Notes under the pieces: model-generated
The model's database searches: none
What the model saw: the letters and a program-made list of their open reading frames with translations, nothing else
Told to the model about the DNA's origin: nothing
Position numbers and translations under genes: made by a program
DNA from: a virus
Virus genome (UHGV): UHGV-0332176
Direction: 5' to 3' (one strand)
Length of the DNA: 64,000 nucleotides
Shown here: positions 814 through 55,449 of the stretch, piece by piece
Layout of the letters: every line of letters begins with the position of its first letter
Position numbering within the stretch: the stretch's first letter is position 1

Positions 814-900
814 TGGTGGGCATACCGAGAGTCGAACTCGGATGAGGATACCCCCGACAGATTTTAAGTCTGTTGCGTCTACCAATTCCGCCATACGCCC
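814..900 (-). tRNA. tRNA-Leu (anticodon TAA), type II with long variable arm, CCA encoded
   Basis: Reverse complement folds as a cloverleaf: acceptor GGGCGTA..., D-arm with GG, anticodon stem-loop ACAGA-CTTAAAA-TCTGT (anticodon UAA), long variable arm CGGGGGTATCCTCATCCG, T-arm GAGTTCGACTCTC, 3' ...CCCACCA. Confidence 0.8.
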
Positions 901-910
901 TTAATAATTT

Positions 911-918
911 TATTTATA
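911..918 (-). promoter_or_regulatory. T4-late-type promoter core TATAAATA (minus strand), 10 nt upstream of tRNA-Leu 5' end
   Basis: Plus-strand tatttata = minus TATAAATA, followed by AAAATTATTAA. The same extended motif (TTAATAATTTTATTTAT) precedes the second tRNA cluster at 3532-3549. Confidence 0.45.
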
Positions 919-1138
919 TTATATTTAAATATTATTATCAATATATTATAAATCACTTCTGCTCTGCAAAAACATTTTTGCTTGTATATTTAAATTATCA
1001 TCCTTATTTAACTGCTACCTCAATTAACGGACATATTATTTGCAAGAGTAATTAATCCTTGGAAAATAAATGGTAGCTTTATTTCTGTAACTAATTACTG
1101 TGATTACCTCTACGTTCATATATATAACATTATATTTT

Positions 1139-1669
1139 TTAATTGTCAATACTTTTTTTATTATTTTTTTTACTTACTAATTTATTTAAAAATTTCATTA
1201 ATTGTTGTTTATCACAATCCATTAAATCGTTAAAATTTTTATAACTCATATGATTAAGTAAATCGTGATAACATCCTTCACAAACCTCTATTCCAAATAA
1301 ATCAAATAAAGGTTCATCATCTTCATTCGGACATAAAAAACATCTTCCTTTTTTATTTAAATTATCTTTTTCATAAACAGTCTTTGTAAATAAATTTAAA
1401 AATTTATTAAACATTGATTTTTTCTCCTCTTTTACTTGATTCCATTCTTGAATATTACGATTATAATATTCAGTATCTGATTTATTTAATTGATTTGTAT
1501 ATATTTTAAAATTACAATCATTACAAATAGTATATGTATAAGCTAATGCTTTTTCAGGTTGCTGATAACATAAAGCTACAATTAAATCAATACCTGACCC
1601 AAAACCTAAATTTGTTGACCCACATTTAGGACAAGGTTTATATGGATAGATGTTACTATAATTATTCAT
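1139..1669 (-). CDS. Zinc-ribbon protein with four CxxC pairs; hypothetical
   Basis: 176 aa; CPKCG...CNDC...CFLCP...CEGC. Minus-strand TATAAT and GGAG RBS upstream of ATG at 1669. Confidence 0.6.
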   Translation of the reverse strand: MNNYSNIYPYKPCPKCGSTNLGFGSGIDLIVALCYQQPEKALAYTYTICNDCNFKIYTNQLNKSDTEYYNRNIQEWNQVKEEKKSMFNKFLNLFTKTVYEKDNLNKKGRCFLCPNEDDEPLFDLFGIEVCEGCYHDLLNHMSYKNFNDLMDCDKQQLMKFLNKLVSKKNNKKSIDN

Positions 1670-1713
1670 TAAAAATCTCCATAAATTATATATGGAGATT
1701 ACACTATATTTAA

Positions 1714-2550
1714 TTATTTGTCAACAATTTTTTCTTCCGTTTTTTTATTCCATAAACCTTTTGCTTTTCTTTCTGCAAACGTTTCTTTAACAAAATGTTT
1801 AGAAATTTCATTTTCATAAATTTCTTTTTCTTGTTCATAATTATTAATTCTTTCATTTGCCATATCAATATATTCTTGTGAATTATCAATACCAATATAA
1901 TTATGATTAAGAAATTTACAAGCTATCGCTGTTGTTCCTGAACCTATATATGGGTCAATAATTAATTTATTTGTTTCATTATCCAGTATAGAATATATGC
2001 ATCTTAATGGAATTTGTAATGGAAAAGGTGCAGGATGATTTGACTTTTTTTCTGGTGATATTTCCCATACTGATGTTAGTAATGAATGTTTTGATTTCAT
2101 TTCTGAACCAATTAAATTATTATTAATTGGTTTATATAGCCAATAAATTCGTTCTTCTATTTGCCAAAATCTATAACCTCTAATATTAGATGCTATTTTT
2201 CTATTCCAAATAATTTCTTGTCGTATTGTCCAATCAGTTTTTCTTAACCAATCCATTGGATGAATCATATACCCTTTATCCCATCTTAATTTATGATTAT
2301 AAAAAAATGAACCGCCAGGTTTTATTATTCTATATAATTCATTTAATACTTTAATTTGTAATTCTTGATAATTATTTTCAGGCATTGAATCATTATAAGA
2401 ATTGTATTGAACATCTTTAACTAACCAACCTTTATTTTTTTTCCCAAACTTATTATAAGGCGGAGAAGTTATACCCATATCTACACTATTAGAATCAAAT
2501 TGTTTTAATGTTTCTAATGTATCACCAAAATATATTTTATTTACATTCAC
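1714..2550 (-). CDS. DNA amino-methyltransferase, beta-class (motif IV SPPY before motif I DPYIGSGTT); likely N4-cytosine (or N6-adenine) MTase
   Basis: DMGITSPPYNK near N-terminus and FxGSGTT AdoMet motif near C-terminus; the order IV->I marks the beta class; SPPY is typical of N4C enzymes. Confidence 0.85.
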   Translation of the reverse strand: MNVNKIYFGDTLETLKQFDSNSVDMGITSPPYNKFGKKNKGWLVKDVQYNSYNDSMPENNYQELQIKVLNELYRIIKPGGSFFYNHKLRWDKGYMIHPMDWLRKTDWTIRQEIIWNRKIASNIRGYRFWQIEERIYWLYKPINNNLIGSEMKSKHSLLTSVWEISPEKKSNHPAPFPLQIPLRCIYSILDNETNKLIIDPYIGSGTTAIACKFLNHNYIGIDNSQEYIDMANERINNYEQEKEIYENEISKHFVKETFAERKAKGLWNKKTEEKIVDK

Positions 2551-3172
2551 TTAAAAGCCTTTCATATAAATCTTTAACAATATAAGATTTATAATATTCT
2601 AATTTAGTTTTTGATGCAATATAAATTAATTCTGCATCATCAATATAAGATTTATAATTAAATTGTAAACTTCGTAAATAATGATTTGGCTTTCTTGGTA
2701 AATGTGAATCACCAAAATAATTATATAACTTATTATAAAAATGTGTTTTTAATTTTGGAGAATCATACTTTATTTTAAAAATATAAATTAATTTTCCATC
2801 TATAAAACCACCTATTAATAATGTTGGATTTTCTTTTAAATGCTTATGGTATCTATCCCAAGTATAATCACTATAAGAACCAGACCCATTTAATTTTTCA
2901 GGTTTTTGCTTGGAAGTATCACAATTACTTAATTTAACTTCACAAAATCCTTCTTCATTTTGTCCATCATATCCTAATTTAGATAATAATGGTTGATAAT
3001 TACATTCATATAAAATAGTTCTTTCACGAGCAGTAGATGAATTTTTATCATTAATAAATTGCTTTATTAATTGTATAATAATTTCTTTATTATTTTCTTT
3101 ATTTAATGTTTGATTAAATTCTTGAATTTTATCAGTTGAATAAAAATATATTAATTTATCTATGATATTCAT
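2537..3172 (-). CDS. Hypothetical protein co-oriented with and overlapping the MTase start by 14 nt; candidate cognate restriction endonuclease (alternatively a small KxNG nucleotidyltransferase)
   Basis: 211 aa. Possible PD-(D/E)xK-like YDGQNEEGFCEVK segment and a KLNG motif. Operon-like overlap with the MTase. No recognisable family. Confidence 0.35.
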   Translation of the reverse strand: MNIIDKLIYFYSTDKIQEFNQTLNKENNKEIIIQLIKQFINDKNSSTARERTILYECNYQPLLSKLGYDGQNEEGFCEVKLSNCDTSKQKPEKLNGSGSYSDYTWDRYHKHLKENPTLLIGGFIDGKLIYIFKIKYDSPKLKTHFYNKLYNYFGDSHLPRKPNHYLRSLQFNYKSYIDDAELIYIASKTKLEYYKSYIVKDLYERLLSECK

Positions 3173-3202
3173 TTAATATCAATAACTCCCACATAAAAAT
3201 TT

Positions 3203-3289
3203 TGGAAGTCTGGACGAGATTCGAACTCGCATCATCTTTTCAGATATACGGTTTTGCAGACCGCTGTATAGCCATTCTACCACCAGACT
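3203..3289 (-). tRNA. tRNA with anticodon GCA (Cys) and U73 discriminator but type-II architecture (17-nt variable arm), CCA encoded
   Basis: RC: AGTCTGG/CCAGACT acceptor, GG in D-loop, anticodon stem-loop GCGGT-CTGCAAA-ACCGT, variable arm ATATCTGAAAAGATGAT, T-arm GCGAG-TTCGAAT-CTCGT, then U-CCA. Confidence 0.6.
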
Positions 3290-3296
3290 TATAAAA

Positions 3297-3371
3297 TGGT
3301 ACGGTAAGTGAGAATCGAACTCACATATTCAGCTTGGAAGGCTGACGTAATAGCCATTATACCATTACCGC
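3297..3371 (-). tRNA. tRNA-Gly (anticodon TCC)
   Basis: RC: GCGGTAA...TTACCGT acceptor (G1-U72 wobble), anticodon stem-loop TCAGC-CTTCCAA-GCTGA, T-arm GTGAG-TTCGATT-CTCAC, ACCA end. Confidence 0.75.
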
Positions 3372-3376
3372 ATTAA

Positions 3377-3451
3377 TGGAGCGACTTGCGAGAATCGAAC
3401 TCACATCTAAACCTTGGCAAGGTCTTGTATTAACCATTATACGAAAGTCGC
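3377..3451 (-). tRNA. tRNA-Gly (anticodon GCC)
   Basis: RC: perfect acceptor GCGACTT/AAGTCGC, D-stem GTAT/ATAC, anticodon stem-loop AGACC-TTGCCAA-GGTTT, T-loop TTCGATT, U73-CCA. Confidence 0.75.
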
Positions 3452-3457
3452 AAATAT

Positions 3458-3531
3458 TGGCAGGAGCATAGGGATTTGAACCCCAACAGACAGTTTTGGA
3501 GACTGTAATGCTACCGTTACATCATACTCCT
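3458..3531 (-). tRNA. tRNA-Trp (anticodon CCA)
   Basis: RC: AGGAGTA/TGCTCCT acceptor, U8, D-stem ATGT/GCAT, anticodon stem-loop ACAGT-CTCCAAA-ACTGT, T-loop TTCAAAT, G73-CCA. Confidence 0.75.
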
Positions 3532-6682: not shown

Positions 6683-7492
6683 TTATTCATCACCATACAT
6701 AATTGGTTCAGCATCATAAAAATAAGTTTCAACCTTATTTTCAACTTTTTTCATAATTGGTAATTGTAATTCTTGAACTTCACTACGCATTACCATATTA
6801 TTTTCAGGTCTTTTATCAGTAGGTATTTTAGATAATGTTTCTTCATCAAGAACTTTCATTACATTAACTCTTTTGAAATAAGACCCTCTTTTAAGAAATG
6901 GTTTAATATCATTAAAATTAATACCTTTTTCTTGAAATAGCATTTCATTCATTTCTGCTGTTGATTTACCTTGTAATTCTTTATGACTAAAATTTGCTTG
7001 TGCAACCATACTAACAGCATTTCGTGCAGCATCATTTTCTCGCCATACAAAAGCATTAGCTAATTCTATCATATTTGGTAATTGAAAGACACGACAATCA
7101 AAATTTGGTTTAAGATTTTCAACTTTTTCTTTTAATTTCGGATATTTCATACAATTTAAAACAAAAGATACAGTTGCCATTGATGCAAGAACAGATGTTA
7201 ATTTAAATAATCTTCCATCAAACGGTGCTTTACTCATATCTTCCCAAGCTAATGAAATTTCATCTGACTGAACATATCCAAGTTTTGCATTTGTCTGTTT
7301 TACTAAATCTTGACAAACCTCTCTCATAACTGCAACAAATTCCATATCAAATGGTTTATCTAATCCACGACAAAAAGTATGAAAAGCACGACCATCTAAT
7401 CTAACATATACAGGTAATCTTGGCATTAACATTGTTGATGTTGTTAATGCTTCATAAGTTTTCATACGGTCTCCCAAATTATCATTTATCAT
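6683..7492 (-). CDS. Thg1-like protein (tRNA-His guanylyltransferase family, 3'-5' nucleotidyltransferase)
   Basis: PVYVRLDGRAFHTF (Thg1 RxDGRxFHxF motif), VQSDEISLAW (GQSDEYSF), RLFKLTSVLASMATVSFV. Start placed at internal ATG 7492 (RBS AAGGA); 7465 (RBS GGGAGA) is also possible. The 7594 start in the ORF track would overlap the upstream gene by 100 nt. Confidence 0.8.
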   Translation of the reverse strand: MINDNLGDRMKTYEALTTSTMLMPRLPVYVRLDGRAFHTFCRGLDKPFDMEFVAVMREVCQDLVKQTNAKLGYVQSDEISLAWEDMSKAPFDGRLFKLTSVLASMATVSFVLNCMKYPKLKEKVENLKPNFDCRVFQLPNMIELANAFVWRENDAARNAVSMVAQANFSHKELQGKSTAEMNEMLFQEKGINFNDIKPFLKRGSYFKRVNVMKVLDEETLSKIPTDKRPENNMVMRSEVQELQLPIMKKVENKVETYFYDAEPIMYGDE

Positions 7493-7493
7493 T

Positions 7494-7844
7494 TTAATAT
7501 CCTTTAAATTTACTACAAAAACAAATCCGTTTTTTTCTTCTTTTTTCTCTTTTAAACATTGCAAAATCAATTCTTTTACAAATTGTATTTTCAAATATGT
7601 AATTTTCTAATTCAGTTAAAAAACTGTTATATAAATCATAATTCCAAATTTTACCTTTATATGGTTTTATCATATTTTTAATATGTGCCATTTGTTCTAC
7701 AGAAAAGTAATTTAGTCTAATATATAAACAAGTATTTTTCCATATTCTTAAAGATAAACAAGGTATATTATATGGAAACATTGTATTTGTTAATTTATTA
7801 ATATACCTATCACAAACAAAATTAACTTTTTTCTTATTTCTCAA
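7494..7844 (-). CDS. Hypothetical protein
   Basis: ORF immediately upstream of the Thg1-like gene; several possible internal starts. Confidence 0.4.
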   Translation of the reverse strand: MRNKKKVNFVCDRYINKLTNTMFPYNIPCLSLRIWKNTCLYIRLNYFSVEQMAHIKNMIKPYKGKIWNYDLYNSFLTELENYIFENTICKRIDFAMFKREKRRKKRICFCSKFKGY

Positions 7845-12118: not shown

Positions 12119-12715
12119 TTAAGTTAAATCAATCCCTAATTCTTTGGCTTTATTTAGTAATTGAACTCTATTATAACATTTCATTCTTTTTAAAATATTT
12201 GTTATATGAACTTTAACAGTAGATTCTGAAATATTCAATTCATATGCTATCTGTTTATTAGATAAACCTTTATTGATTAATTTAATAACATCAATCTGCT
12301 TATTTGTTACAATTTTCTTAAATGAATTAATTACTAAATTATTTGGAAAGTATGTTTCATTTAATAAAATCAAATTAATAATGTTAAAAATTTTATCATT
12401 GGAATACTTTTTAGAAATATATCCAGCAACATTATATCTCATATAATTAACTATATCAGTTGAAATATATTCTGATGTTAAAATAATTAATTTACCATTT
12501 AAATTTTGTTTTTGAAAAAATGATAAAATAGTTAAAATATCAATTTTTGGAGTTTTTGTAATAAAAATCAAATCATATTGGTTAGATAGAATATTATTTT
12601 TGATATTATTATAATCACAGCAAGCATTAATTTCACAATTTTCATCAATATGTGTTAATAATTCTTTTAATCCTGTAATATACAGTTCTTCATCATCTAT
12701 TATAAGTATTTTCAT
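12119..12715 (-). CDS. LuxR/FixJ-family transcriptional regulator with degenerate receiver domain (pseudo-response regulator)
   Basis: C-terminal HTH LSNKQIAYELNISESTVKVHITNILKRMK closely matches NarL/LuxR. N-terminal receiver-like MKILIIDDEE, but the phospho-acceptor position reads DLIFITK (Thr where Asp is expected). Confidence 0.8.
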   Translation of the reverse strand: MKILIIDDEELYITGLKELLTHIDENCEINACCDYNNIKNNILSNQYDLIFITKTPKIDILTILSFFQKQNLNGKLIILTSEYISTDIVNYMRYNVAGYISKKYSNDKIFNIINLILLNETYFPNNLVINSFKKIVTNKQIDVIKLINKGLSNKQIAYELNISESTVKVHITNILKRMKCYNRVQLLNKAKELGIDLT

Positions 12716-12950
12716 TTTTAACCTCTTTTCTGTTATGAAATTAACACAATAATTTAGAAGTTAATAATAATGCTTTTGGAAGTATAACATATAAGACTTA
12801 ATAATTAGTTTCCAATATATAAAAAATTTTATAAAAAAATTATGTAGTAAAATCAATAAGTTAATTAATTAAAGTTATATAAATGATAAAATATTAGACA
12901 ATAAATATTTTTGTAAAAAGAGAGCATCACAATATTTTGAAAGGTTAAAA

Positions 12951-13412
12951 ATGAATACATCTTATGAAAAATTATCATTTTATAATACATTTTTTGGTGG
13001 CTCAATTGATGGCGATAATATTATTTCTACCGATTTTTATGGGAATAAACAAGTCGTTGGTGTAACAATGAAAAAATATCAAGATACATTAGATTTATTA
13101 AACACATATTATAATAAATTAATTGAACTTGGTATTATTGAAAAAGAAAAAACTCCTGAAGATATTGCAAAAGAACAACAACAAATGATGCAAGCTATGT
13201 TTGCACAAATGCAAATGATGCAAGAAAAGTTAGATAGTTTACAATCAAAAAATAATGAAGAAATAATTATGAAAGGTGAAAATGATGAACGTGAATCAAA
13301 TAGCGAATATGTTAGCACAGAAATTCAATCTGAATCCAAATCAGCAGACAAACTTAACCCAGTCAATAGAAAAAGCAAGAACACTTCTAAATTCAGTAAA
13401 CAATCCGACTGA
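12951..13412 (+). CDS. Hypothetical Q/M-rich coiled-coil protein
   Basis: 153 aa; RBS GAAAGG; low-complexity C-terminus overlaps the next ORF. Confidence 0.5.
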   Translation: MNTSYEKLSFYNTFFGGSIDGDNIISTDFYGNKQVVGVTMKKYQDTLDLLNTYYNKLIELGIIEKEKTPEDIAKEQQQMMQAMFAQMQMMQEKLDSLQSKNNEEIIMKGENDERESNSEYVSTEIQSESKSADKLNPVNRKSKNTSKFSKQSD

Positions 13413-13677
13413 TGCATTATCAAAAGCTAATATTGACCAAGGATTTTTAGAAAAAATTAAAGGATACTTAAATAATCCAATGTATAGTTTTTTATTACCT
13501 ATGATTGGAATTGATAAAAAAGTTGCTTTACAAAAAATAGATTCATTAGAACAAATGTTAAATAATCAAACTAATAATCCTATGACATTGCCTAATGAAT
13601 CTCAACAATCATCACTCCCAATGAGTCAGAATGATGATTTAGAAAGATTTAGAAAAGGTCTAAATTCTTTCAAATAG
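13285..13677 (+). CDS. Hypothetical protein (N/Q-rich); start uncertain (ATG 13282/13285 after RBS AAAGGTGA)
   Basis: ORF in the +1 frame relative to the upstream ORF, overlapping it by ~130 nt. Confidence 0.45.
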   Translation: MNVNQIANMLAQKFNLNPNQQTNLTQSIEKARTLLNSVNNPTDALSKANIDQGFLEKIKGYLNNPMYSFLLPMIGIDKKVALQKIDSLEQMLNNQTNNPMTLPNESQQSSLPMSQNDDLERFRKGLNSFK

Positions 13678-13729
13678 GACTCAATTATTATTATGTATAT
13701 TATTCAAATATTATTAAAGGAGAATTATT

Positions 13730-14314
13730 ATGAATGAAATTATGTCAAATGATACAACATTTAGTTGGGGTTGGGTAATCTTCTTAATCTTAATTTTATG
13801 GTTCTTTGTTGGTGGTAATGGCTTTGGCTTTGGTTATGGAAACAGAGCAGGAAGTTTTTTAGCTGGTGATGTATTAGGTCAAATCCAAGGTCGTGATGCT
13901 TCATTAAGCTGTGGTGCTTCAAACTGTGAAGTTGAAAGACGTAGCTTAATTACTGCTGCTGATACAAACTTTAGAATTATTGACCAAGCTCAACAAACTC
14001 GTAGTGTTGTAGAAGCTACAAGTGCAACAACAAATGCTAAAATTGATTTCTATGCTTACCAAGATTTAAGAGATAAATTAGCTGAATCACAAAGAGAAAA
14101 TATGATGTTACAAAACAAATTATATTCTGATGCTAAATTCGGTGCAATTGAAGCTCAATTAGCTTCTATCTCTTGCAAAATGGCTAAACAACCAGAAGTC
14201 TATGCAACAAGTGCTGTTTGTCCAAATGCTGCTGTTGTAAATGGTTTAGGTTTTAATGGCTTTACATATCCTGCTCCATATTCTTATGGTTGCAATGGTA
14301 ATGTTTTAGCTTAA
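13730..14314 (+). CDS. Membrane-anchored Gly-rich protein with GC-rich (high-expression) codon usage
   Basis: N-terminal TM WGWVIFLILILWFFVGG followed by GNGFGFGYGN. Codon usage (GGT/GCT/CGT/AAC) matches the capsid and tube genes. Strong RBS AAAGGAG. Confidence 0.65.
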   Translation: MNEIMSNDTTFSWGWVIFLILILWFFVGGNGFGFGYGNRAGSFLAGDVLGQIQGRDASLSCGASNCEVERRSLITAADTNFRIIDQAQQTRSVVEATSATTNAKIDFYAYQDLRDKLAESQRENMMLQNKLYSDAKFGAIEAQLASISCKMAKQPEVYATSAVCPNAAVVNGLGFNGFTYPAPYSYGCNGNVLA

Positions 14315-17237: not shown

Positions 17238-17699
17238 ATGGAAAATCAAATTACAAAAAATTTTACTTTAGCTGAATTAACATATTCTGATACAGCAAAT
17301 ATTAAAAAAATACCAAATATTCCAACAGAAATTGAATATAATAATATGAAAAATTTATGTGAAAATGTTTTACAACCATTAAGAGATGCATTAAAAAAAC
17401 CAATAAGAGTTAATTCTTGTTACCGTGGAAAACAATTAAATGAAGCCGTTGGTGGTTCTAAAACATCTCAACATTGTAAAGGTCAAGCTGCTGATATTGA
17501 AATTATTGGTATGAGTAATTATGATTTAGCTTGTTATATACGTGATAATTTTGATTTTGACCAATTAATTTTGGAATTTACAGATAATATTAAAAACGAT
17601 ATTAATGCTGGTTGGGTTCACGTATCTTATGTATCACCAATAGCAAATCGTAAGCAATGTTTAACTATTAATAAATCAGGAACAAAACTTGGTTTTTAA
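17238..17699 (+). CDS. Peptidase M15 family (zinc D-Ala-D-Ala carboxypeptidase-like) cell-wall hydrolase; endolysin candidate
   Basis: FTLAELTYSDTA...IPN.P N-terminal motif; SCYRGKQLNEAVGGSKTSQHCKGQAADI (SxHxxGxAxD zinc-binding core). Confidence 0.75.
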   Translation: MENQITKNFTLAELTYSDTANIKKIPNIPTEIEYNNMKNLCENVLQPLRDALKKPIRVNSCYRGKQLNEAVGGSKTSQHCKGQAADIEIIGMSNYDLACYIRDNFDFDQLILEFTDNIKNDINAGWVHVSYVSPIANRKQCLTINKSGTKLGF

Positions 17700-18082: not shown

Positions 18083-18125
18083 ATTTTATCCTTTATTTCT
18101 ATTTAATAAATAGAAATAAACAATT

Positions 18126-18152
18126 AAAAACCGCCTTTAATAGGCGGTTTTT
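18126..18152. terminator. Rho-independent terminator (aaaaaccgcc-tttaata-ggcggttttt) downstream of groEL
   Basis: GC-rich stem flanked by A and T runs. Confidence 0.7.
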
Positions 18153-18169
18153 ATAAATAATTAAGTATT

Positions 18170-19807
18170 TTACATATTAGGTGTATTTTGTCTTATTGCT
18201 GACATTAACTTTAAATTAGTTTCAGTATCATCAATAATTAATCCTTCAACCGTTAATAATGAACCTGCAATTGAAGACCCATTTTCCAAAGCACAACGAA
18301 CAACTTTGGTTGCATCTAAAATACCTGCATCAACTAAATTACAGAATTTATCGCATTTAGCATCATATCCCCAAGAATAATCATCATTATCTAATACTTT
18401 TTCAACAATGACTTCACCAGATTTTCCAGCATTTTCTGCAATTTTTTTCATTGGAGCACTTAAAGATTTTAATACAATTTCATATCCAACATTTTCATCA
18501 TCTGTTATAACAATATTATTTAATTCCTTAATAAGGTCTTTTTGTGCTCTTACTAATGATACTCCACCACCAGGTAAAATACCTTCTTCTAATGCTGCTC
18601 TCGTTGCACAAACGGCATCATCAACACGGTCTTTCTTTTCTTTAACTTCTGTTTCAGTTGCTCCACCAACTTTAATAACAGCAACACCGCCAATTAATTT
18701 AGCAAGTCTTTCACGAAGTTTTTCTTTATCATATGATGAATCAGTATTTTCAATTTCTTCAGAAATTTGTTTTGCTCTTTCATCAATAGCTTCTTTACTT
18801 CCGTGTCCACCAATAATAATTGTTTCAGTTGGTGTAATTCTAATTTTATCGCAAGAACCCAAATCATCAATAGTTACTTTTTCTAATTGAGCACCAAATT
18901 GAGTTGAAATAAAATTACCACCTGTTAAAATTGCAATATCTTCCATTTGAAATCTACGAATATCACCAAATGAAGGAGCTTTAACAGCACAAACTTTTAA
19001 TCCTGCTTTAATTCTATTAATAACCAATGCTGATAATGGGTCATCTGCCATTTCATCGGCAATCATAATTAATGGACGACCAATTTCCATAACATTTTCT
19101 AACAAAGGAATAATAGATTGAAGATTGTTAATTTTACCATCATATAAGAAAATATATGGATTATCATACTCAACTAATTGTCTTTCTGGATTAGTCATAA
19201 AATATGGTGAAAGATAACCTTGGTCAAATTGTAAACCATCAACAATTTCTAATTCTGTCTTTAATCCCTTTGCTTCTTCAACAGTAACTACACCTTTTTC
19301 ACCAACAACTTCAATTGCTTTAGCAATAAAATCACCAATTTCTGTATCACCATTTGCAGAAATAGTTGCCAATTGACGAATTTCTTCATTTGTTGTTACT
19401 TTTTTTGAATGTGATTTTAATGATTCAACTACAACCTTAACTGCATTTGAAATACCTTTTTGAATTTCAGTAGATTTACGACCTTTAGAAATTGACTTTA
19501 AACCTTCTTCAGCAATTGTAGATGCAATTATACAAGTTGCTGTTGTACCATCACCTGCATCTCTACCAGTTTTTTCAGATGCTTGAATAATCATTTTTGC
19601 ACCTTCACCTTCAGAGTCCATTAGTGTAACAGATTTTGCAACAGTTACACCATCTTTTGTAACTTTTGGTGAACCCCAAGATTGTTGAATAGCAATTGTT
19701 CTACCAGCAGGACCAGCAGTAGCAGAAACAACATCTGCAACTGTTTTCATACCAGAATATAACGTACTACGAGCTTCATCACCTTTAATTACTTTTTTAA
19801 TTGTCAT
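18170..19807 (-). CDS. groEL: Chaperonin GroEL (Cpn60) homologue, no C-terminal GGM repeats
   Basis: 545 aa. N-terminus MTIKKVIKGDEAR; AVKAPSFGDIRRFQMEDIAILTGG; GGGVSLVRA. Ends ...RQNTPNM. RBS AAGGAGA. Confidence 0.93.
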   Translation of the reverse strand: MTIKKVIKGDEARSTLYSGMKTVADVVSATAGPAGRTIAIQQSWGSPKVTKDGVTVAKSVTLMDSEGEGAKMIIQASEKTGRDAGDGTTATCIIASTIAEEGLKSISKGRKSTEIQKGISNAVKVVVESLKSHSKKVTTNEEIRQLATISANGDTEIGDFIAKAIEVVGEKGVVTVEEAKGLKTELEIVDGLQFDQGYLSPYFMTNPERQLVEYDNPYIFLYDGKINNLQSIIPLLENVMEIGRPLIMIADEMADDPLSALVINRIKAGLKVCAVKAPSFGDIRRFQMEDIAILTGGNFISTQFGAQLEKVTIDDLGSCDKIRITPTETIIIGGHGSKEAIDERAKQISEEIENTDSSYDKEKLRERLAKLIGGVAVIKVGGATETEVKEKKDRVDDAVCATRAALEEGILPGGGVSLVRAQKDLIKELNNIVITDDENVGYEIVLKSLSAPMKKIAENAGKSGEVIVEKVLDNDDYSWGYDAKCDKFCNLVDAGILDATKVVRCALENGSSIAGSLLTVEGLIIDDTETNLKLMSAIRQNTPNM

Positions 19808-19879
19808 AATTATTTTTTCTCCTTAACTTAAATTTATTTTTAATAATAACAAAAATTTTATAATTTTACAAAAATAATT

Positions 19880-20182
19880 TTAATGTATAATACCTAAAAT
19901 ATCTGTTTCTCTTAAAATTGTTTTTTCTTCATCGTTTAATTTAATAATTTGACCTGCAAATTTTCCAAATAAAACTCTATCTCCAACTTTAACTGTCATT
20001 GGTTGAATTTTTCCTGTTTCTTCATTATATAAACCATTTCCACACGCAATTACAACACCTGTTGATGGTTTTTCTTTTGCATTATCAGGAATAATAATTC
20101 CGCCGTTAGAAACACTTTTTTCTTCATCTTTTTCAATAACAACGAAATTAAATAAAGGTTGAATTTCTAATTTTTTTTCCAT
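19880..20182 (-). CDS. groES: Co-chaperonin GroES (Cpn10) homologue
   Basis: LEIQPLFNFVVIEK...GGIIIPDNAKEKPSTGVVIACGNG...VGDRVLFGKFAG...ILGI. Start placed at the second ATG (20182), which has RBS GGAG; the ATG at 20194 abuts the terminator U-tract. Confidence 0.88.
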   Translation of the reverse strand: MEKKLEIQPLFNFVVIEKDEEKSVSNGGIIIPDNAKEKPSTGVVIACGNGLYNEETGKIQPMTVKVGDRVLFGKFAGQIIKLNDEEKTILRETDILGIIH

Positions 20183-20198
20183 TTTTTTCTCCATAAAA

Positions 20199-20226
20199 AA
20201 TAAGCTAACTTGTTTGTTAGCTTATT
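20199..20226. terminator. Terminator hairpin (aataagctaac-ttgtttg-ttagcttatt) followed by a T-run on the minus strand
   Basis: Downstream of 20263..20817 and directly upstream of groES. Confidence 0.55.
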
Positions 20227-20262
20227 ATATAGGAGAATAAAAATAATTGTCAAAAATAAAAA

Positions 20263-20817
20263 TTAATTTTTTATTTCAAAACCCATTGTTGATAAATCAA
20301 AATCATCAGATGGAGATTTCATAAATGTTTGATTTGATAAATTTAATTCATCATCTATTAACATATTTTTATAATTATTATATACTCGTTCAAAGTATGT
20401 AATTAATTGTTCTCTGCACGGAAATTTTTTATATTTTCTAAAGAATATAGATAATTTTGGTAAAATAAATTCTTCATCAAATTTCATAAAACAATTATTC
20501 TTAATATAAACATTATTACCTGTTGTTGTCAAATAAAATAAAGGAATAATAAATTTATAATCAACAATAAACTTATGAAATCTTGAACCATAAATACTTC
20601 CTTTTCCATAACGACCAAGACCAAATTGAATTTTAATATTAGTTGTCTGAAAAACTTCACAAATAATTTCATTAATTAAATCAAGTTTTTCCTGTGATAT
20701 AAGTTTAGATAAATTTTTATATTTCTGGTTCGTTTTATAAGCAGTTTTAAATTTTATTTTATTAAAATATTTTGACCCATCATATTTATTATGCCATATA
20801 TTCTTAATTTTTAACAT
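20263..20817 (-). CDS. Hypothetical basic protein (184 aa)
   Basis: Intact ORF preceded by the 37-bp repeat cassette. Confidence 0.6.
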   Translation of the reverse strand: MLKIKNIWHNKYDGSKYFNKIKFKTAYKTNQKYKNLSKLISQEKLDLINEIICEVFQTTNIKIQFGLGRYGKGSIYGSRFHKFIVDYKFIIPLFYLTTTGNNVYIKNNCFMKFDEEFILPKLSIFFRKYKKFPCREQLITYFERVYNNYKNMLIDDELNLSNQTFMKSPSDDFDLSTMGFEIKN

Positions 20818-20863: not shown

Positions 20864-20895
20864 TTATGATTAAATTTTTAATTTGTCAAGTATTT

Positions 20896-21171
20896 TTAAC
20901 ATAATCTTGTATAAGTAATTGTTGAATCAAGCGAATCAACCATTGAAGAATCAATATTTAGATTAATTAAATCTGAATAGAAACCATCTTCATCTTCAAT
21001 TTCAAAATTTTCAATTGTGTCCAAATCCATTTCTGTTTCATCATCATCAAAAGTATCCATTAAAAATTCTTTAAGGGTAACATTTTCAGAAGATTCAACT
21101 CCTTCGCTGTTATCTGTAATATTATAAATTTGGTTAAGTTGTTCGTTAGAAATAGTAAGAGTTTTAGTCAT
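20896..21171 (-). CDS. Hypothetical acidic protein (91 aa)
   Basis: Intact ORF. Confidence 0.5.
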   Translation of the reverse strand: MTKTLTISNEQLNQIYNITDNSEGVESSENVTLKEFLMDTFDDDETEMDLDTIENFEIEDEDGFYSDLINLNIDSSMVDSLDSTITYTRLC

Positions 21172-21252
21172 TATTTAATCCTTTCAAAAATAAGTTAATA
21201 TCCAATTACGAATATTAACTTATCATAAAAAAATTAAATGTCAAGGATTTTT

Positions 21253-21462
21253 TTATAAATTTTCAATTAAATTTCCTTTTTCTTGCAAATTTTTCATTTG
21301 AGTTTTAATAATTTCTTTTGTTTTGTCATCAATTTCATCATAATATACAAAACCCCACGCACTTGCTTGAGTTACCATATGAATTAATGGCAAGGAATTA
21401 AGAGCATCATCATTAATTTTTAAAATTTTTTTAATTGCATTTTTTGTTTTTTCAAAAGCCAT
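21253..21462 (-). CDS. Hypothetical protein (69 aa)
   Basis: RBS AAAGGAAAC directly after the repeat-cassette terminator. Confidence 0.5.
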   Translation of the reverse strand: MAFEKTKNAIKKILKINDDALNSLPLIHMVTQASAWGFVYYDEIDDKTKEIIKTQMKNLQEKGNLIENL

Positions 21463-21471
21463 TAAAGTTTC

Positions 21472-21539: not shown

Positions 21540-23354
21540 TTAATTCCATTGCAAATGCCAATAAAATGTTGTTCCTGTATTTTCATTTGTAACTCTTGCT
21601 ATTGAAAATTTTTTAGTTGATTCAAAATAATCAATTACTTGTTGCATTTCATCTTGCAATACATCATTTTCAATTAATTGCTTCCAAACTTGATAATACT
21701 TTTTAGACATAGTTGGAGCTTCCATTACATAATTAATTTCTGGTACTTCAGTATATATACCACCATTAATTAATTTTGTTTCTAAAATTTTATCATTAGT
21801 AATTCTAACAGTTGCACTTGCATCACCCTCATTAAATACAACACTTGTTGGATACATATATCCATCTCCATAATTATCCATAACAATATATTTAATTGTC
21901 CACTCTAAATCACTATCAACTGGAATTCTACCTAATAAATAATCATTTAAATTCCAAACTTTATTAACAAGAGTCCAATGTCCAGCAATTTTAACATAAG
22001 TTGTATAAGGTTCTAATTTACCTGAATAAGCAACAACATCGTGGTCTTCTCCCCAATCATCATAAAGTTTAATTTGGTCAAATCTATATTCATTATTTGT
22101 TTCAACCCATTTATCATTTATTTTAACTCTATAACGACCTTCATCCCAAATGAATATATCTAAATTATTTCCAAATACATCAGGTGGTAAATTATTCCAA
22201 TCATATTCAACTACTATTTCTTGCCAAATTCTATGACAACATTTATAGACTTTATGTGGAATACGATTTATAATATTTCCTTCATCGTCATAAATTAATT
22301 CATTATAATAACCAATATCATAATCTAAACCATCTTCAGCTGTTGGTGTTCTATCTCCAAAATTCCAAATATTATGAGATAAATTCCATCCACAATTTGT
22401 TTTAACATAATTTTTTCCAAACACATTATAACAAACTGTTCCTTCAACTCCAAAATTAAATGGTAATTTAAATGTTTTATAATCATAAATTGTAGAAACT
22501 TCAACCCAACCATTTTCTGTTTTAACATAAATTTTATCTTGTTCCTTTGTATAAGTATCACTTATCATACCAAATGCTTCGGGCGGTAAAGAATTAATAT
22601 CATAAATTGTGTTAATTGGGAACCAATCTGTTTGACCTGGATAAGAAGGATTACCATTTAAATCTTTAACTTGTTGTTCATTATTTCTTGTTATTTGTAA
22701 ATCTGAAATTAATCCATAATCAGAATCTATATCTAACCAAACTGAATCTCCTGGTTTAATTGTTTCATCTGTCCAATATTTCATATTTTTATAAACTAAT
22801 TTTGCAGTATCAAAAATTGTAGTATATTCCCCACGATTAACAATTTCTAAATTAATAATATCTCCATTATTATTAATTTCAGATACTCTGAATTCTAAAG
22901 GTATTGGATTAGTATCATTTTGAACTTGTAAAATTTCACCAACACGAAAATAATTTATTGGATGAACTCTACCTAATGAATCTCCGCCATTAGCAAATAA
23001 CATAAAATCAGTTGTTGTAGAATCTCCACCATAAATATTAGGTTCTTCAAAAGTTTCAGTTGAAGATAATCCACCATATACATATTTTAATAATGGGGTT
23101 TCAATAATATCTTCAAGTTCATAATCTTTATGAATAGTAATTTTAGACAATTCCATAACACAATGAGATTTTGCTTCTTTAATTGGTTCAGCCATTTCAC
23201 GAGCATCGGTCATAACAGTATTATATACATCACATTCAAATTGATTTTCATCAACAGCTTGCATAATATATTCTTCAATATCATTAATTTCTTTTAATAT
23301 ACGAGATTTATTTCGGGCATATTGTTTTGCACTTGTGGCATCATAAAAATCCAT
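21540..23354 (-). CDS. Hypothetical large protein (604 aa), Trp/Asn-rich beta-type composition; possible virion/fibre component
   Basis: Intact ORF; AATAAATA late-like motif upstream; no recognisable catalytic motifs. Confidence 0.6.
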   Translation of the reverse strand: MDFYDATSAKQYARNKSRILKEINDIEEYIMQAVDENQFECDVYNTVMTDAREMAEPIKEAKSHCVMELSKITIHKDYELEDIIETPLLKYVYGGLSSTETFEEPNIYGGDSTTTDFMLFANGGDSLGRVHPINYFRVGEILQVQNDTNPIPLEFRVSEINNNGDIINLEIVNRGEYTTIFDTAKLVYKNMKYWTDETIKPGDSVWLDIDSDYGLISDLQITRNNEQQVKDLNGNPSYPGQTDWFPINTIYDINSLPPEAFGMISDTYTKEQDKIYVKTENGWVEVSTIYDYKTFKLPFNFGVEGTVCYNVFGKNYVKTNCGWNLSHNIWNFGDRTPTAEDGLDYDIGYYNELIYDDEGNIINRIPHKVYKCCHRIWQEIVVEYDWNNLPPDVFGNNLDIFIWDEGRYRVKINDKWVETNNEYRFDQIKLYDDWGEDHDVVAYSGKLEPYTTYVKIAGHWTLVNKVWNLNDYLLGRIPVDSDLEWTIKYIVMDNYGDGYMYPTSVVFNEGDASATVRITNDKILETKLINGGIYTEVPEINYVMEAPTMSKKYYQVWKQLIENDVLQDEMQQVIDYFESTKKFSIARVTNENTGTTFYWHLQWN

Positions 23355-41460: not shown

Positions 41461-42027
41461 TTCTTCTAATTCTGTTTCCCAATATTCTTTAGAAAACCAA
41501 TCATTTTCATCATATTCTTTAAATTTACGATTTTTACGATTGTTTTCTTCTAATTGTCTAATTGTTGGTACTTTTGGTTCGTGAATTAATTTCATATGCG
41601 ATTCTTCAAGCGTTTTTCCACCTTTTTTACCATTACATTCACGACAAGCAGTAACAATATTATCCCACGTTGTTTTTCCACCTTTACATCTTGGCATTAC
41701 GTGGTCAAATGTTAAATCATCGGCTTTAAATTTATTTCCACAATATTGACAAATATAATTATCTCTTAAATATACATTTCTTCGAGAAAATTTTGGTGTA
41801 TGTGTTACATTAATATACTTTTTCAAAACAACAATTTTTGGCAATTTCATTTCTTTGTTTTGAATAATAATTGTATCATCATATTCTTTAACAACCGATA
41901 ATCTTCCTTTAAGGAGAGATTTAATAACCTTTTTCATACTATTTAAAGATAAAGGATATTTACTTAATGGTTGATAATCACCATTAAGAATTAAAACTGG
42001 TCTATTCATAATATTTTTATTTGTCAT
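41455..42027 (-). CDS. HNH endonuclease (phage HNH family with N-terminal RPVLILNGDYQPL motif)
   Basis: CQYCGNKFKADDLTFDHVMPRCKGGKTTWDNIVTACRECNGKKG. N-terminal motif typical of phage terminase-associated/homing HNH proteins. Confidence 0.85.
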   Translation of the reverse strand: MTNKNIMNRPVLILNGDYQPLSKYPLSLNSMKKVIKSLLKGRLSVVKEYDDTIIIQNKEMKLPKIVVLKKYINVTHTPKFSRRNVYLRDNYICQYCGNKFKADDLTFDHVMPRCKGGKTTWDNIVTACRECNGKKGGKTLEESHMKLIHEPKVPTIRQLEENNRKNRKFKEYDENDWFSKEYWETELEEF

Positions 42028-43331: not shown

Positions 43332-44537
43332 TTAGATGAAACGTAAGTTAGCAACTTTAATTTTAGCTAAGAAGTCACCAGCGTTACCTAAAGAGTTAGC
43401 TGGGTTAGTTAAAGCAAAGAAACCATAACGTGTGCTTAATGCCATAACGTGTTCGAATGTATTAGGGTCTAAGATAGTACCTGATGACATTACTGGAATG
43501 TATGGGCAGTAATAAGCAGCAGCATCAATTTCATCTGAACCTTTATAACCAATTAAGATGTCGTCATCTTTTGCATATGTGTTAACATATACTTTTAATG
43601 TGTTATTTAAAGTACCAACGTATTTGTTATTTGTTGGAGCTTCAAATGTACCTTCTGTAGTTCTTACGAATTGAGAAGCAGTAGCTGATTGTAATACTGA
43701 TAATACTGTATGTGAAACTACTGACCAGTTAGCTGATGCTTTTCTGATTTTACGAGCAATTTCATTTGAGTATCTGTTAATCATAACAGCTAAAGCAGCG
43801 TGTTCGTCAACAACTGATGTAGCAACACCTGAAATTTTGTTTTGGTCATATGTTGCAACTGGTAAACCAGCAATAGCTTGTAATTTACCTAAAATTTCTT
43901 GGTCAATATCTAATACGATTTCTTGAGCTAAAGCAGAAGTTAATTCTTGTTCAATATTAGCACCGTATTGAGATTGAGCATCTTGCATAGCTTCTAATGT
44001 AAATCTTGCTTTTAATTTACGTGAGCCAGCTTTAACATCTTCTTTTACGAATTCAATGTTAATATCGTTACCACCTGTACCTTCTAATACAGCTGTATCA
44101 GCAGCACCTGGGTTAACCATATCTTCATTACCAGAATACCAAGCACCAACTAAGAATGGTGATAATGCTTCTTGACCAGCGATGATACCAGAACCATCAA
44201 CAGGAGAATTTGTAGCATATCTAATTCTCATAGTTGTAATTGTACCAGAAGGACCTGATAATGGTTGAACACCTACTAATTCGTGAGCCATAACTGTTGG
44301 CATAATACGTTTAATTAAAGGCATCATAACTTTGTTAATAATTGCTACGTTAGCAGCAACTGTTGAACCTTGTGTTGCGTGTTCTGCTAAGAATTGTCTA
44401 CGAACATTTTCTAAAACAGATTCTGTGATACGTCTACGAGATGCACCTTTAATATCAGAAACCATACCTTTTTTCAATCTATTCCAAGCGGTTGGGCTTT
44501 CTAATAATAACACGCCTTTATCAATATTTGTTGTCAT
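43332..44537 (-). CDS. gp23: Major capsid protein, T4 gp23 family
   Basis: HELVGVQPLSGPSG (cf. T4 FDICGVQPMNSPTG); GYKGSDEIDAAAYYCPYIP (cf. GYKGPNEMDAGIYYAPYV); GC-rich codon usage; RBS AGGAGAAAAAA. Confidence 0.93.
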   Translation of the reverse strand: MTTNIDKGVLLLESPTAWNRLKKGMVSDIKGASRRRITESVLENVRRQFLAEHATQGSTVAANVAIINKVMMPLIKRIMPTVMAHELVGVQPLSGPSGTITTMRIRYATNSPVDGSGIIAGQEALSPFLVGAWYSGNEDMVNPGAADTAVLEGTGGNDINIEFVKEDVKAGSRKLKARFTLEAMQDAQSQYGANIEQELTSALAQEIVLDIDQEILGKLQAIAGLPVATYDQNKISGVATSVVDEHAALAVMINRYSNEIARKIRKASANWSVVSHTVLSVLQSATASQFVRTTEGTFEAPTNNKYVGTLNNTLKVYVNTYAKDDDILIGYKGSDEIDAAAYYCPYIPVMSSGTILDPNTFEHVMALSTRYGFFALTNPANSLGNAGDFLAKIKVANLRFI

Positions 44538-55423: not shown

Positions 55424-55449
55424 AAAAAAGGAGTTTAAACTCCTTTTTT
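55424..55449. terminator. Terminator palindrome aaaaaaggagttt/aaactcctttttt downstream of the giant ORF
   Basis: Perfect 13-bp palindrome. Confidence 0.65.

Follow-up and report, generated by a model that had tools for sequence, protein, structure and literature searches.

The phage genome UHGV-0332176 carries its own pair of chaperonin genes, groES and groEL, both real and intact. They were found in a 64,000 nt stretch of its DNA, which we will call the window. It is quite probable that they form a functional group I chaperonin operon owned by the phage, with GroES first, GroEL second and the capsid protein as the likeliest client. Chaperonin pairs of phages are a class already known, which includes a cultured phage with a matching head type; as annotation this is an ordinary auxiliary gene of a known class, correctly recognised. 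What differs, as far as it can be read from sequence, is the clade to which this GroEL belongs: it keeps the residues for catalysis and for the binding of GroES and substrate, it loses the allosteric salt bridges and usually T91, and its inter-ring contacts are altered. The coordinates of all features are given in Table 1.

Table 1. Features of the chaperonin locus and related genes in the window
Feature	Position	Strand	Size	Basis and remarks
groES (Cpn10)	19880..20182	(-)	100 aa from second ATG	Pfam Cpn10 and solved chains
groEL (Cpn60)	18170..19807, including stop codon	(-)	545 aa	ORF, Pfam and alignment with solved structures
Shine-Dalgarno GGAG for groES	20189..20192	(-)		6 nt before ATG 20182; read from sequence
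Shine-Dalgarno AAGGAG for groEL	19819..19824	(-)		11 nt before ATG 19807; read from sequence
Sigma-70-type promoter TTGACA-18-TATAAT	20224..20253	(-)		12/12 consensus matches; inferred driver of groES-groEL
Terminator-like hairpin	20199..20226	(-)	11 pairs and T-run	Ends upstream gene of 184 aa; overlaps promoter -10 element
Intrinsic terminator 3' of groEL	18125..18153	(-)	12-pair stem, then T-run	5 G-C pairs in stem
Gp23-type major capsid protein	43332..44537	(-)	401 aa	Pfam Gp23 1.5e-82; PHROG major head protein 1.9e-83; outside operon
Peptidase_M15_3, likely endolysin	17238..17699	(+)		Pfam 2.4e-18; convergent, about 470 bp beyond groEL

The product of groEL matches the Pfam family Cpn60_TCP1 in residues 23–526 (E = 1.8e-70, 238.5 bits, with a curated cut-off of 34.3 bits). 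It is colinear with solved GroELs over its full length: residues 3–526 align on chain residues 2–526 (E = 6.9e-155). The product of groES matches Pfam Cpn10 (E = 6.6e-28, 97 bits, cut-off 21.1 bits) and solved GroES/Cpn10 chains (e.g. 1.6e-22). Since both Pfam matches exceed their curated cut-offs and 105 full-length homologues of GroEL are found, the identity of the two proteins is far beyond chance. The groES reading frame reaches a first ATG at 20194 (19880–20194, 104 aa), which has no Shine-Dalgarno site, while the second ATG has one. Gene callers picked the form with 100 aa in five of six independent contigs, and a start at the second ATG would fit this length. The first-pass annotation had described adjacent and co-oriented genes for a GroES of 100 aa and a GroEL of 545 aa, each with a ribosome-binding site; both frames are indeed on the minus strand at that place, with the Shine-Dalgarno sites listed in the table. 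Motifs of this kind precede 52 of the 63 reading frames of the window, as compared with a background of 7%.

The same annotation noted that this GroEL lacks the C-terminal GGM repeat, which is correct: the sequence ends in ...IIDDTETNLKLMSAIRQNTPNM, and in place of the repeat there is a tail of 19 residues containing Met, Gln and Pro. None of the 105 clade homologues has a GGM tail, as compared with 61 out of 79 bacterial GroELs; the tail is not universal among bacteria and does not define a group I chaperonin. An antisense reading frame of 160 aa within groEL (18408–18890) was discarded as an artefact: it is rich in Ser, Pro and Phe, it lies inside a conserved gene and is called in no contig.

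Both genes are universal in bacteria, and several "phage" records of the collection which match at 44–46% resemble mis-binned bacterial contigs. It might be thought that the locus is bacterial DNA, either a contaminant, a chimera or a very recent and possibly decaying host capture, a reading whose probability we consider negligible. The locus recurs in six independent assemblies of 237–288 kb with 99.7–99.9% nucleotide identity, and the contig also carries head genes of T4 type. The GC3 of groEL is 0.086, in line with other phage genes. Bacterial GroELs reach at most 54% identity with it among the GTDB species genomes returned by the search, a comparison set skewed to Alphaproteobacteria by the way in which the search tool selects candidates. 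The 105 intact homologues form a single clade with 100% bootstrap (NJ), and several of them are on contigs of 200–390 kb. Contaminant, chimera and pseudogene origins are thus excluded. Two outcomes had been proposed as fatal to the pair, a truncated or pseudogenised GroEL and a GroEL which groups with bacteria. Neither was found: there is no frameshift, the identical 545 aa protein is present in 481 collection blocks, and identity and bootstrap values place it apart from bacteria. The NJ tree also joins the clade to GroELs of Bacteroides, Flavobacterium and 735-kb phages with 95% bootstrap. We do not rely on this link to other phages, because Alphaproteobacteria give the higher raw identity and an artefact of long-branch attraction is likely.

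The signals around the two genes suggest that they form one transcription unit, with promoter, Shine-Dalgarno sites and terminator. Nowhere else in the 64-kb window is the promoter consensus matched perfectly; at least one such match also appears in 31 of 100 shuffled sequences, so that by itself the match is not significant. In two relatives (L009 and L012) with GroELs of just 67–70% identity, a promoter TTGACA-17-TATTAT is found in the equivalent position. Terminator-like sites are four in the region scanned, with 0.5 expected. The hairpin which overlaps the -10 element deserves a comment. With transcription initiated some 7 nt beyond the -10 element, the first nucleotide would fall within the left arm of the hairpin, so that groES transcripts would not form it. 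The hairpin is missing in L009 and L012 and is therefore not a conserved regulatory element. We also considered its perfect 9-bp inverted repeat (20226–20199) as a CIRCE-like operator. The CIRCE heat-shock operator has the consensus TTAGCACTC-N9-GAGTGCTAA; the repeat found here, TAAGCTAAC-N6-GTTAGCTTA, does not fit it and has no counterpart in the two relatives. It is better read as the terminator of the upstream gene, with the promoter overlapping it. The next upstream intergenic region (20889–20838) has the same layout as the one before groES.

The source of this DNA is a large, uncultured jumbo phage of about 288 kb, apparently associated with the gut. Its contigs have 237–290 kb and a GC content of 25.5%. 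The first-pass annotation called it a T4-like genome, which holds for the head module only. Besides the Gp23 capsid protein, the window contains Portal_T4 (Gp20, 4.7e-74) and Peptidase_S77 (Gp21, 7.8e-25) in Pfam; the order on the minus strand is portal, protease, a protein of 419 aa and capsid, as in T4. The closest capsids (53%) are not those of T4: they belong to jumbo phages of 310–373 kb, the 121Q/PBECO4 group and Vibrio phage 2.275.O. At the nucleotide level no relative was found among 50,697 phage records. With its closest capsid relatives outside the T4 group, the phage does not appear to be T4-like in the narrow sense.

As for the host, there is a weak hint of an alphaproteobacterium: the nearest cellular homologues of GroEL (52–54%) and of a response regulator (33–36%) are found in Alphaproteobacteria, in searches which both favour particular candidates. 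Gut or rumen contigs of this group have 43–45% GC. The almost universal use of Shine-Dalgarno sites and the TTGACA/TATAAT promoter would argue against a host in the Bacteroidota. A group of gut jumbo phages named "Jug" has 360–402 kb, 27–30% GC and Bacteroides hosts, and chaperonins go unmentioned in the main text of its description (PMC12880540). Identity with these phages is not established; the contig size and GC content of our phage are different.

We will now consider the residues of GroEL. The identity with E. coli GroEL is 43.9%; the two systems agree in gene order and domain architecture, and they share ATP-site and apical residues. At the nucleotide site the window protein has T30, K51, D52, D87, G88, T89, T90, D398, G415, G416 and D495, while T91 is replaced by Ala. 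On the apical surface, positions Y199, Y203, F204, L234, L237, L259, V263 and V264 are occupied by Y, Y, F, I, L, L, V and I. All 105 GroELs of the clade keep D52, D87, T89, D398, E386, Y203, F204, L237 and L259, and 104 keep T90. K80, D155 and R395 are also invariant in the clade, E409 and R501 nearly so: the E. coli pairs K80-E386, D155-R395 and E409-R501 are retained. T91 is kept in only nine of the 105; its change to Ala affects the phosphate-binding loop and might weaken or alter the ATPase activity.

The differences with E. coli include D83, T91, R197, K327, E461 and the GGM tail. The T-state salt bridges D83-K327 and R197-E386 are absent from the window protein, which has R83, P327 and Q197. 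D83 and K327 are found in none of the 105 clade members and R197 in three, as compared with 79 out of 79 bacterial sequences. These salt bridges are functional hallmarks and do not define the family. D83, T91, R197 and K327 are among the 44 positions substituted in the clade out of 265 invariant in the bacterial sample, where "invariant" leans partly on general knowledge of GroEL and the sample is skewed to Alphaproteobacteria. Contacts between rings are also altered in the window protein and its clade: R452K, E461S, S463E and A109K. Because both T-state bridges are lost and the R-state pair K80-E386 is kept, an altered allostery is predicted for the whole clade, with rings that would cooperate less than those of E. 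coli GroEL.

GroES has the features expected of a lid. Its mobile loop ...SNGGIIIPDNAKEKP... (NGGIIIP, a Gly and three hydrophobic residues) and its roof hairpin segment GNGLYNEETGKIQP are present and can be aligned to their counterparts in E. coli GroES. Immediately 5' of Cpn60 there is a Cpn10 gene in all six phage contigs and in the relatives with 67–70% identity, in the three lineages examined. A check for gp31 elsewhere had been suggested: in the 64-kb window there is no gp31-like gene, second Cpn10 or second GroEL, and T4 gp31 compared with the six-frame segments of the window by phmmer gives a best E of 1.5.

The two proteins might still not work as a pair. GroES could re-tool the GroEL of the host in the manner of gp31, and the phage GroEL could be a holdase independent of a lid, possibly in single rings. 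The clade-wide loss of D83-K327 and R197-E386 is in favour of such an arrangement, as it is found in EL and OBP, which need no co-chaperonin, and so are the changed inter-ring contacts. Two related jumbo phages, each with one of the two genes, point in the same direction: Vibrio phage 2.275.O has a GroEL and no GroES detected; for Escherichia phage EJP2 a GroES is annotated, and the phage is not among the GroEL matches listed. We consider this arrangement quite improbable, since the two genes are adjacent and share a transcription unit in every lineage examined, the apical residues which bind GroES and substrate are invariant, and the GroES, unlike gp31, has a canonical loop and keeps the roof hairpin.

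The comparison with the jumbo-phage GroEL homologues EL gp146, OBP gp246 and AR9 gp228 also argues for a true pair. They lack GGM tails, as the window protein does. EL shares the loss of both salt bridges and OBP that of R197-E386; in EL gp146, where neither bridge is conserved, cooperativity is weak (PMC7185714). These chaperonins have about 25% identity with GroEL, a value reported for EL (PMC9598537); they lack a gene for a co-chaperonin and occur as single rings or come apart into such rings. The window GroEL differs from them by its much closer identity with E. coli GroEL, a dedicated and conserved GroES and intact GroES-binding residues. By its sequence it would not be of the lid-independent type, with which salt-bridge loss is the only trait in common.

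A tentative idea, which we find doubtful, is that the clade could be a third type of viral chaperonin, which uses a lid, lacks the concerted T-to-R allostery and has a rebuilt interface between rings. The use of a lid would follow from the dedicated GroES, the intact GroES-binding residues and the canonical mobile loop; the loss of T-to-R allostery from the absence of D83-K327 and R197-E386, the retention of K80-E386 and the replacement of T91. Such a machine could work with weak cooperativity or as a single ring, and its place would be intermediate between cellular GroEL/GroES and the chaperonins of EL and OBP, which have no lid. Its carrier is a phage of about 288 kb which recurs in many metagenome assemblies, apparently from the human gut.

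The first-pass annotation presented the pair as unusual by contrast with T4, which does not stand: viral operons with the order GroES>GroEL are known. Marine et al. (2017) found GroES in 133 out of 337 virome contigs with GroEL, 63 of them in this order (PMC5649160). The order, orientation, viral context and divergence from cellular GroELs place the operon of the window in this class, as judged from its sequence. As in the marine virioplankton operons, the order is canonical, the phages have large genomes and their GroELs diverge from the cellular ones (PMC5649160). The marine operons come from the sea and our phage apparently from the gut; the mobile-loop Gly is changed to Asn or Ser in those marine clusters which have the order GroES>GroEL (PMC5649160), whereas here it is kept (GGIII). 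Another difference is that no gene for a small heat-shock protein is called among the upstream neighbours of the operon.

Flavobacterium phage vB_FspM_immuto_2-6A (NC_055915, cultured, in RefSeq) combines such a pair with a head of T4 type: it has adjacent annotated Cpn10 and Cpn60 genes in the same order as here, and head proteins Gp23, Portal_T4 and Peptidase_S77. Its GroEL also lacks the GGM tail, and its endolysin is at most about 2 kb from groEL, a neighbour found in the window too. The GroELs are 43% identical, the capsids 32% over the aligned part. The immuto genome is smaller (160 kb) and its host belongs to the Bacteroidota; it keeps R197, K327 and T91, with only D83 changed, whereas the window protein is changed at all four. 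Bacteroides phage SJC03 also has the pair, but we do not retain it as a precedent of T4 type: tblastn with the head proteins of the window gave no match in the approximately 156 kb fetched.

How the operon would work can be described as follows. Host polymerase would read it from the sigma-70-type promoter and stop at the intrinsic terminator, giving a message in which groES precedes groEL. The likeliest form of GroEL is a heptameric ring, which would hold non-native protein on its conserved hydrophobic apical surface; GroES would cap the ring through the Gly and Ile-Ile-Ile of its mobile loop, in a cycle driven by ATP hydrolysis. The oligomeric state, the use of the GroES lid, the identity of the client and the timing of expression are inferred. 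The phage would thus gain a folding capacity independent of host GroEL/GroES, most likely for its Gp23-type capsid protein in the first place and possibly for the neighbouring endolysin.

The capsid protein is suggested as client by analogy with T4, in which the folding of gp23 by host GroEL with gp31 is the textbook case. T4 gp31 and RB49 CocO are also chaperonin components brought by phages with Gp23 capsids. T4 encodes the lid alone, while our phage has lid and barrel, and its lid is a true Cpn10 with the roof hairpin; gp31 has no roof hairpin and no sequence similarity to the proteins of the window, and a longer mobile loop is typical of the gp31/CocO co-chaperonins. The capsid protein has 401 aa, below the size of T4 gp23, so that the argument of cavity size used for gp31 need not apply. 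Capsid folding has already been proposed as a rationale for viral chaperonin operons (PMC5649160). It is plausible, as the first-pass annotation proposed, that the capsid protein has outgrown the host chaperonin or that the latter is limiting. The endolysin as second client is a weak lead: EL, OBP and AR9 act on endolysin in vitro (PMC9598537), and its adjacency to groEL is not kept in relatives.

The operon is about 23 kb away from the head module. It might instead be a general booster of proteostasis for hundreds of phage proteins, not specific for the capsid, of use when gene expression of the host is shut off, its chaperonin titrated, or its GroEL weak or absent. This role seems somewhat unlikely as the main explanation, and it can coexist with capsid folding. 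The size of the genome, about 288 kb, speaks for it, as Marine et al. have argued for viruses with large genomes (PMC5649160), and so do the separation from the head genes and the host-type promoter, which suggests an expression earlier than that of late genes. The residue changes found throughout the clade suggest instead a specialisation rather than a mere extra copy.

The phage chaperonins with biochemical studies in the literature consulted, EL, OBP and AR9, are all independent of a lid (PMC9598537, PMC7185714); in the literature searched we found no biochemical study of any phage GroES/GroEL pair. The clade described here is a compact test case, near enough to E. coli GroEL for modelling. 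It poses two questions: to what extent GroEL can do without its allosteric wiring and still encapsulate under a lid, and whether co-evolution has taken place between a Gp23-type capsid protein and a chaperonin private to the phage.

The genes groES and groEL lie side by side, as the first-pass annotation had reported, and both on the minus strand: their reading frames, Pfam domains and matches to solved structures agree. The GroEL can be aligned over its whole length with solved GroELs (best E=6.9e-155; about 1e-141 for E. coli GroEL) and the GroES also matches solved GroES/Cpn10 chains. The 100 aa attributed to GroES correspond to a start at the second ATG (20182), which has GGAG 6 nt upstream and was chosen by gene callers in five of six independent contigs; the first ATG (20194) has no Shine-Dalgarno site. 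In groEL the motif is AAGGAG, 11 nt upstream of the start. The GroEL C-terminus, ...DDTETNLKLMSAIRQNTPNM, has no GGM repeat, as had been claimed. The suggested search for gp31 found neither a gp31-like gene nor a second chaperonin gene in the 64-kb window.

Features of the window discussed in the text
Feature	Position	Strand	Remarks
Five-tRNA cluster	814-3531	minus	Leu-taa, Cys, Gly-tcc, Gly-gcc, Trp
Thg1-like tRNA-His guanylyltransferase	6683-7594	minus	PHROG 4717, 6.9e-82; near tRNA cluster
NarL/FixJ-type response regulator	12119-12715	minus	receiver and GerE domains
Indel 2	12483-14117		segment missing in near-identical assembly L005
Peptidase_M15_3, likely endolysin	17238-17699	plus	about 470 bp beyond groEL, convergent
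Terminator	18153-18125	minus	12-pair stem and T-run, after groEL
groEL	18170-19807	minus	545 aa; Cpn60_TCP1 E=1.8e-70, residues 23-526
groES ORF	19880-20194	minus	104 aa; Cpn10 E=6.6e-28
Terminator-like hairpin	20226-20199	minus	ends upstream gene; overlapped by promoter -10
Promoter	20253-20224	minus	TTGACA-18-TATAAT, perfect; upstream of groES
184-aa protein	20263-20817	minus	upstream of groES
Indel 1	20890-21471		69-aa and 91-aa ORFs missing in near-identical assemblies L004, L007
604-aa protein	21540-23354	minus	several Trp-containing repeats; upstream of groES

The promoter is the sole perfect consensus match in the window. Since at least one such match is present in 31 of 100 shuffled windows, it is not significant alone; its function is supported by its conserved position, as TTGACA-17-TATTAT is found at the equivalent site 5' of groES in two relatives with GroELs only 67-70% identical. 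If transcription begins some 7 nt beyond the -10, the RNA would be missing the hairpin's left arm and would read through. From the promoter and terminator signals we conclude that the two genes make up one bicistronic operon, self-contained and transcribed by a polymerase of host type. The same compact layout is present in two consecutive intergenic regions (20889-20838 and 20253-20199, minus strand): in each, the -10 of a TTGACA-type promoter lies over the 5' arm of the upstream gene's terminator hairpin. In both of them upstream transcripts would end and new ones would begin within the stem.

The operon is real, functional-looking and owned by the phage. The index of the assembly collection lists an identical 545-aa GroEL in 481 blocks, of which 92 contain contigs of 0.2-1 Mb, and the protein belongs to a separate clade; it is neither a truncated or pseudogenised fragment nor grouped with a bacterial contaminant, the alternatives raised in the first-pass annotation. 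The groES-groEL neighbourhood is common to six contigs (237-288 kb) from separate samples, whose labels suggest human-gut projects; over 13.6 kb they are 99.7-99.9% identical to the window except for two strain-level indels. The third-position GC of groEL, 0.086, resembles that of the genes for capsid, portal and helicase (0.07-0.17). GroELs from those GTDB species genomes that were returned reach at most 54% identity, the nearest being mostly from Alphaproteobacteria. In a collection of 5.8 billion proteins, identity falls gradually through unnamed homologues, starting at 100% and reaching about 52% by the point where named bacterial GroELs first turn up, and in a neighbour-joining tree the homologues form one clade with 100% bootstrap and a long stem. 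The six assemblies, the GC, the low bacterial identity and this clade exclude contamination, chimerism, a pseudogene or recent capture.

Relatives P0015 (70% GroEL identity) and P0031 (67%), on contigs of 260-270 kb, keep Cpn10 followed by Cpn60, preceded by a 592-604-aa and a 168-169-aa gene. The corresponding 604-aa and 184-aa genes keep their position directly upstream of groES across the clade, in the relatives examined. Neither protein has a Pfam match above threshold; the former also has no PHROG match. The GroES of two relatives (L009:5599-5982 and L012:5604-5987) has a conserved 27-residue N-terminal extension, MKVGYTIYD.EKTIKLTSAPENGWNVVFEGFDT, before a normal Cpn10 domain, whereas the window GroES does not have it.

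The carrier is an uncultured jumbo phage of about 288 kb and 25.5% GC. Among the proteins encoded in the window are a major capsid protein of the Gp23 type (1.5e-82), a Portal_T4/Gp20 portal (4.7e-74), a prohead protease of the Peptidase_S77/Gp21 type (7.8e-25) and a T4_baseplate protein, besides a DnaB-like helicase and a primase. The minus-strand head genes follow the T4 order: portal, protease, a 419-aa protein, capsid. The closest capsids (53%) are found in jumbo phages of 310-373 kb, from the 121Q/PBECO4 group and Vibrio phage 2.275.O, and there is no nucleotide-level relative among 50,697 phage records. The description "T4-like genome" therefore applies to nothing more than the head module. 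An AAA+ ATPase (42017-43222, minus; Pfam AAA 4.9e-15) is found immediately 3' of the major capsid gene, and a 2453-aa ORF (55448-62809, minus) follows a baseplate-hub-like gene.

Of the 63 ORFs, 52 have a Shine-Dalgarno-like motif in front of them (background 7%); this frequency, together with the consensus sigma-70 promoter, argues for a host which would use such sites and against Bacteroidota, although Bacteroides has been given as the host of gut jumbo phages with comparable GC (PMC12880540). The nearest named cellular homologues of the response regulator are from alphaproteobacterial MAGs (33-36%); in near-identical assemblies its gene is split in two (L006) or largely deleted (L005).

Viral GroES-GroEL operons are a known class, to which the window adds another member. 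As of 2017 ten sequenced phages had GroEL, two of them with both genes; GroES was present on 133 of 337 GroEL-bearing virome contigs, 63 of these in the order GroES>GroEL, and full operons were argued to mark large-genome viruses, possibly folding capsid protein (Marine et al. 2017, PMC5649160). In the present phage collection 236 records match the window GroEL and 41 its GroES, some of them mis-binned bacterial contigs. The cultured Flavobacterium phage immuto (NC_055915) also has adjacent annotated GroES and GroEL, a homologous capsid and portal, and the same head families (Gp23 6.3e-84, Portal_T4 4.5e-71, Peptidase_S77 8.9e-35). Bacteroides phages SJC03/DAC have an unannotated pair, with no T4-type head detectable within the approximately 156 kb examined. 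The near capsid relatives are mixed: a GroEL, but no detected GroES, occurs in Vibrio phage 2.275.O, and an annotated GroES in Escherichia phage EJP2. In Vibrio phages of about 191 kb, such as phiKT1024 (L099:1495-3075), a GroEL homologue is flanked by the genes for tail sheath and tail tube, a context unlike the operon of the window; no GroES was detected in them.

The role inferred as most probable for the pair is capsid folding. The M15 endolysin is a candidate secondary client, since phages EL, OBP and AR9 have chaperonins that act on an endolysin in vitro (PMC9598537). In immuto an endolysin and a holin are found about 1.5 kb downstream of groEL; the relatives at 67-70% do not keep groEL and endolysin adjacent.

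In E. coli numbering, the window GroEL retains T30, K51, D52, D87, G88, T89, T90, D398, G415, G416 and D495, and the apical residues Y199, Y203, F204, L237, L259 and V263. Positions D52, D87, T89, D398, E386, Y203, F204, L237 and L259 are invariant in all 105 clade GroELs, as is K80; the pairs D155-R395 and E409-R501 are kept. In the window GroES the mobile loop (NGGIIIP) and the roof hairpin are both present. Compared with 79 bacterial GroELs, a sample skewed to Alphaproteobacteria so that "invariant" rests partly on general knowledge of GroEL, the clade has replacements at 44 of the 265 positions that do not vary in that sample.

Residues that differ between clade and bacterial GroELs (counts of sequences that keep the residue)
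Position	Clade	Bacteria	Usual in clade
D83	0/105	79/79	K, R, N, S
K327	0/105	79/79	P, Q
R197	3/105	79/79	Q
T91	9/105	79/79	A, N
A109		77/79	K
R452	8/105	77/79	K
E/D461	E 9/105	79/79 (D 65, E 14)	S
GGM tail	0/105	61/79	absent

The pairs D83-K327 and R197-E386 are salt bridges described as important to the allostery of GroEL; neither is conserved in gp146 of phage EL, in which cooperativity is weak and ATP induces single rings (PMC7185714). OBP gp246 also has no R197-E386 (PMC9598537). The clade shares both losses with the former and the second with the latter, but it adds a dedicated lid. Since T-state salt bridges are lost throughout the clade in a lid-bearing chaperonin, altered allostery is predicted for its GroELs; this loss is the only feature beyond routine annotation, and it is directly testable.
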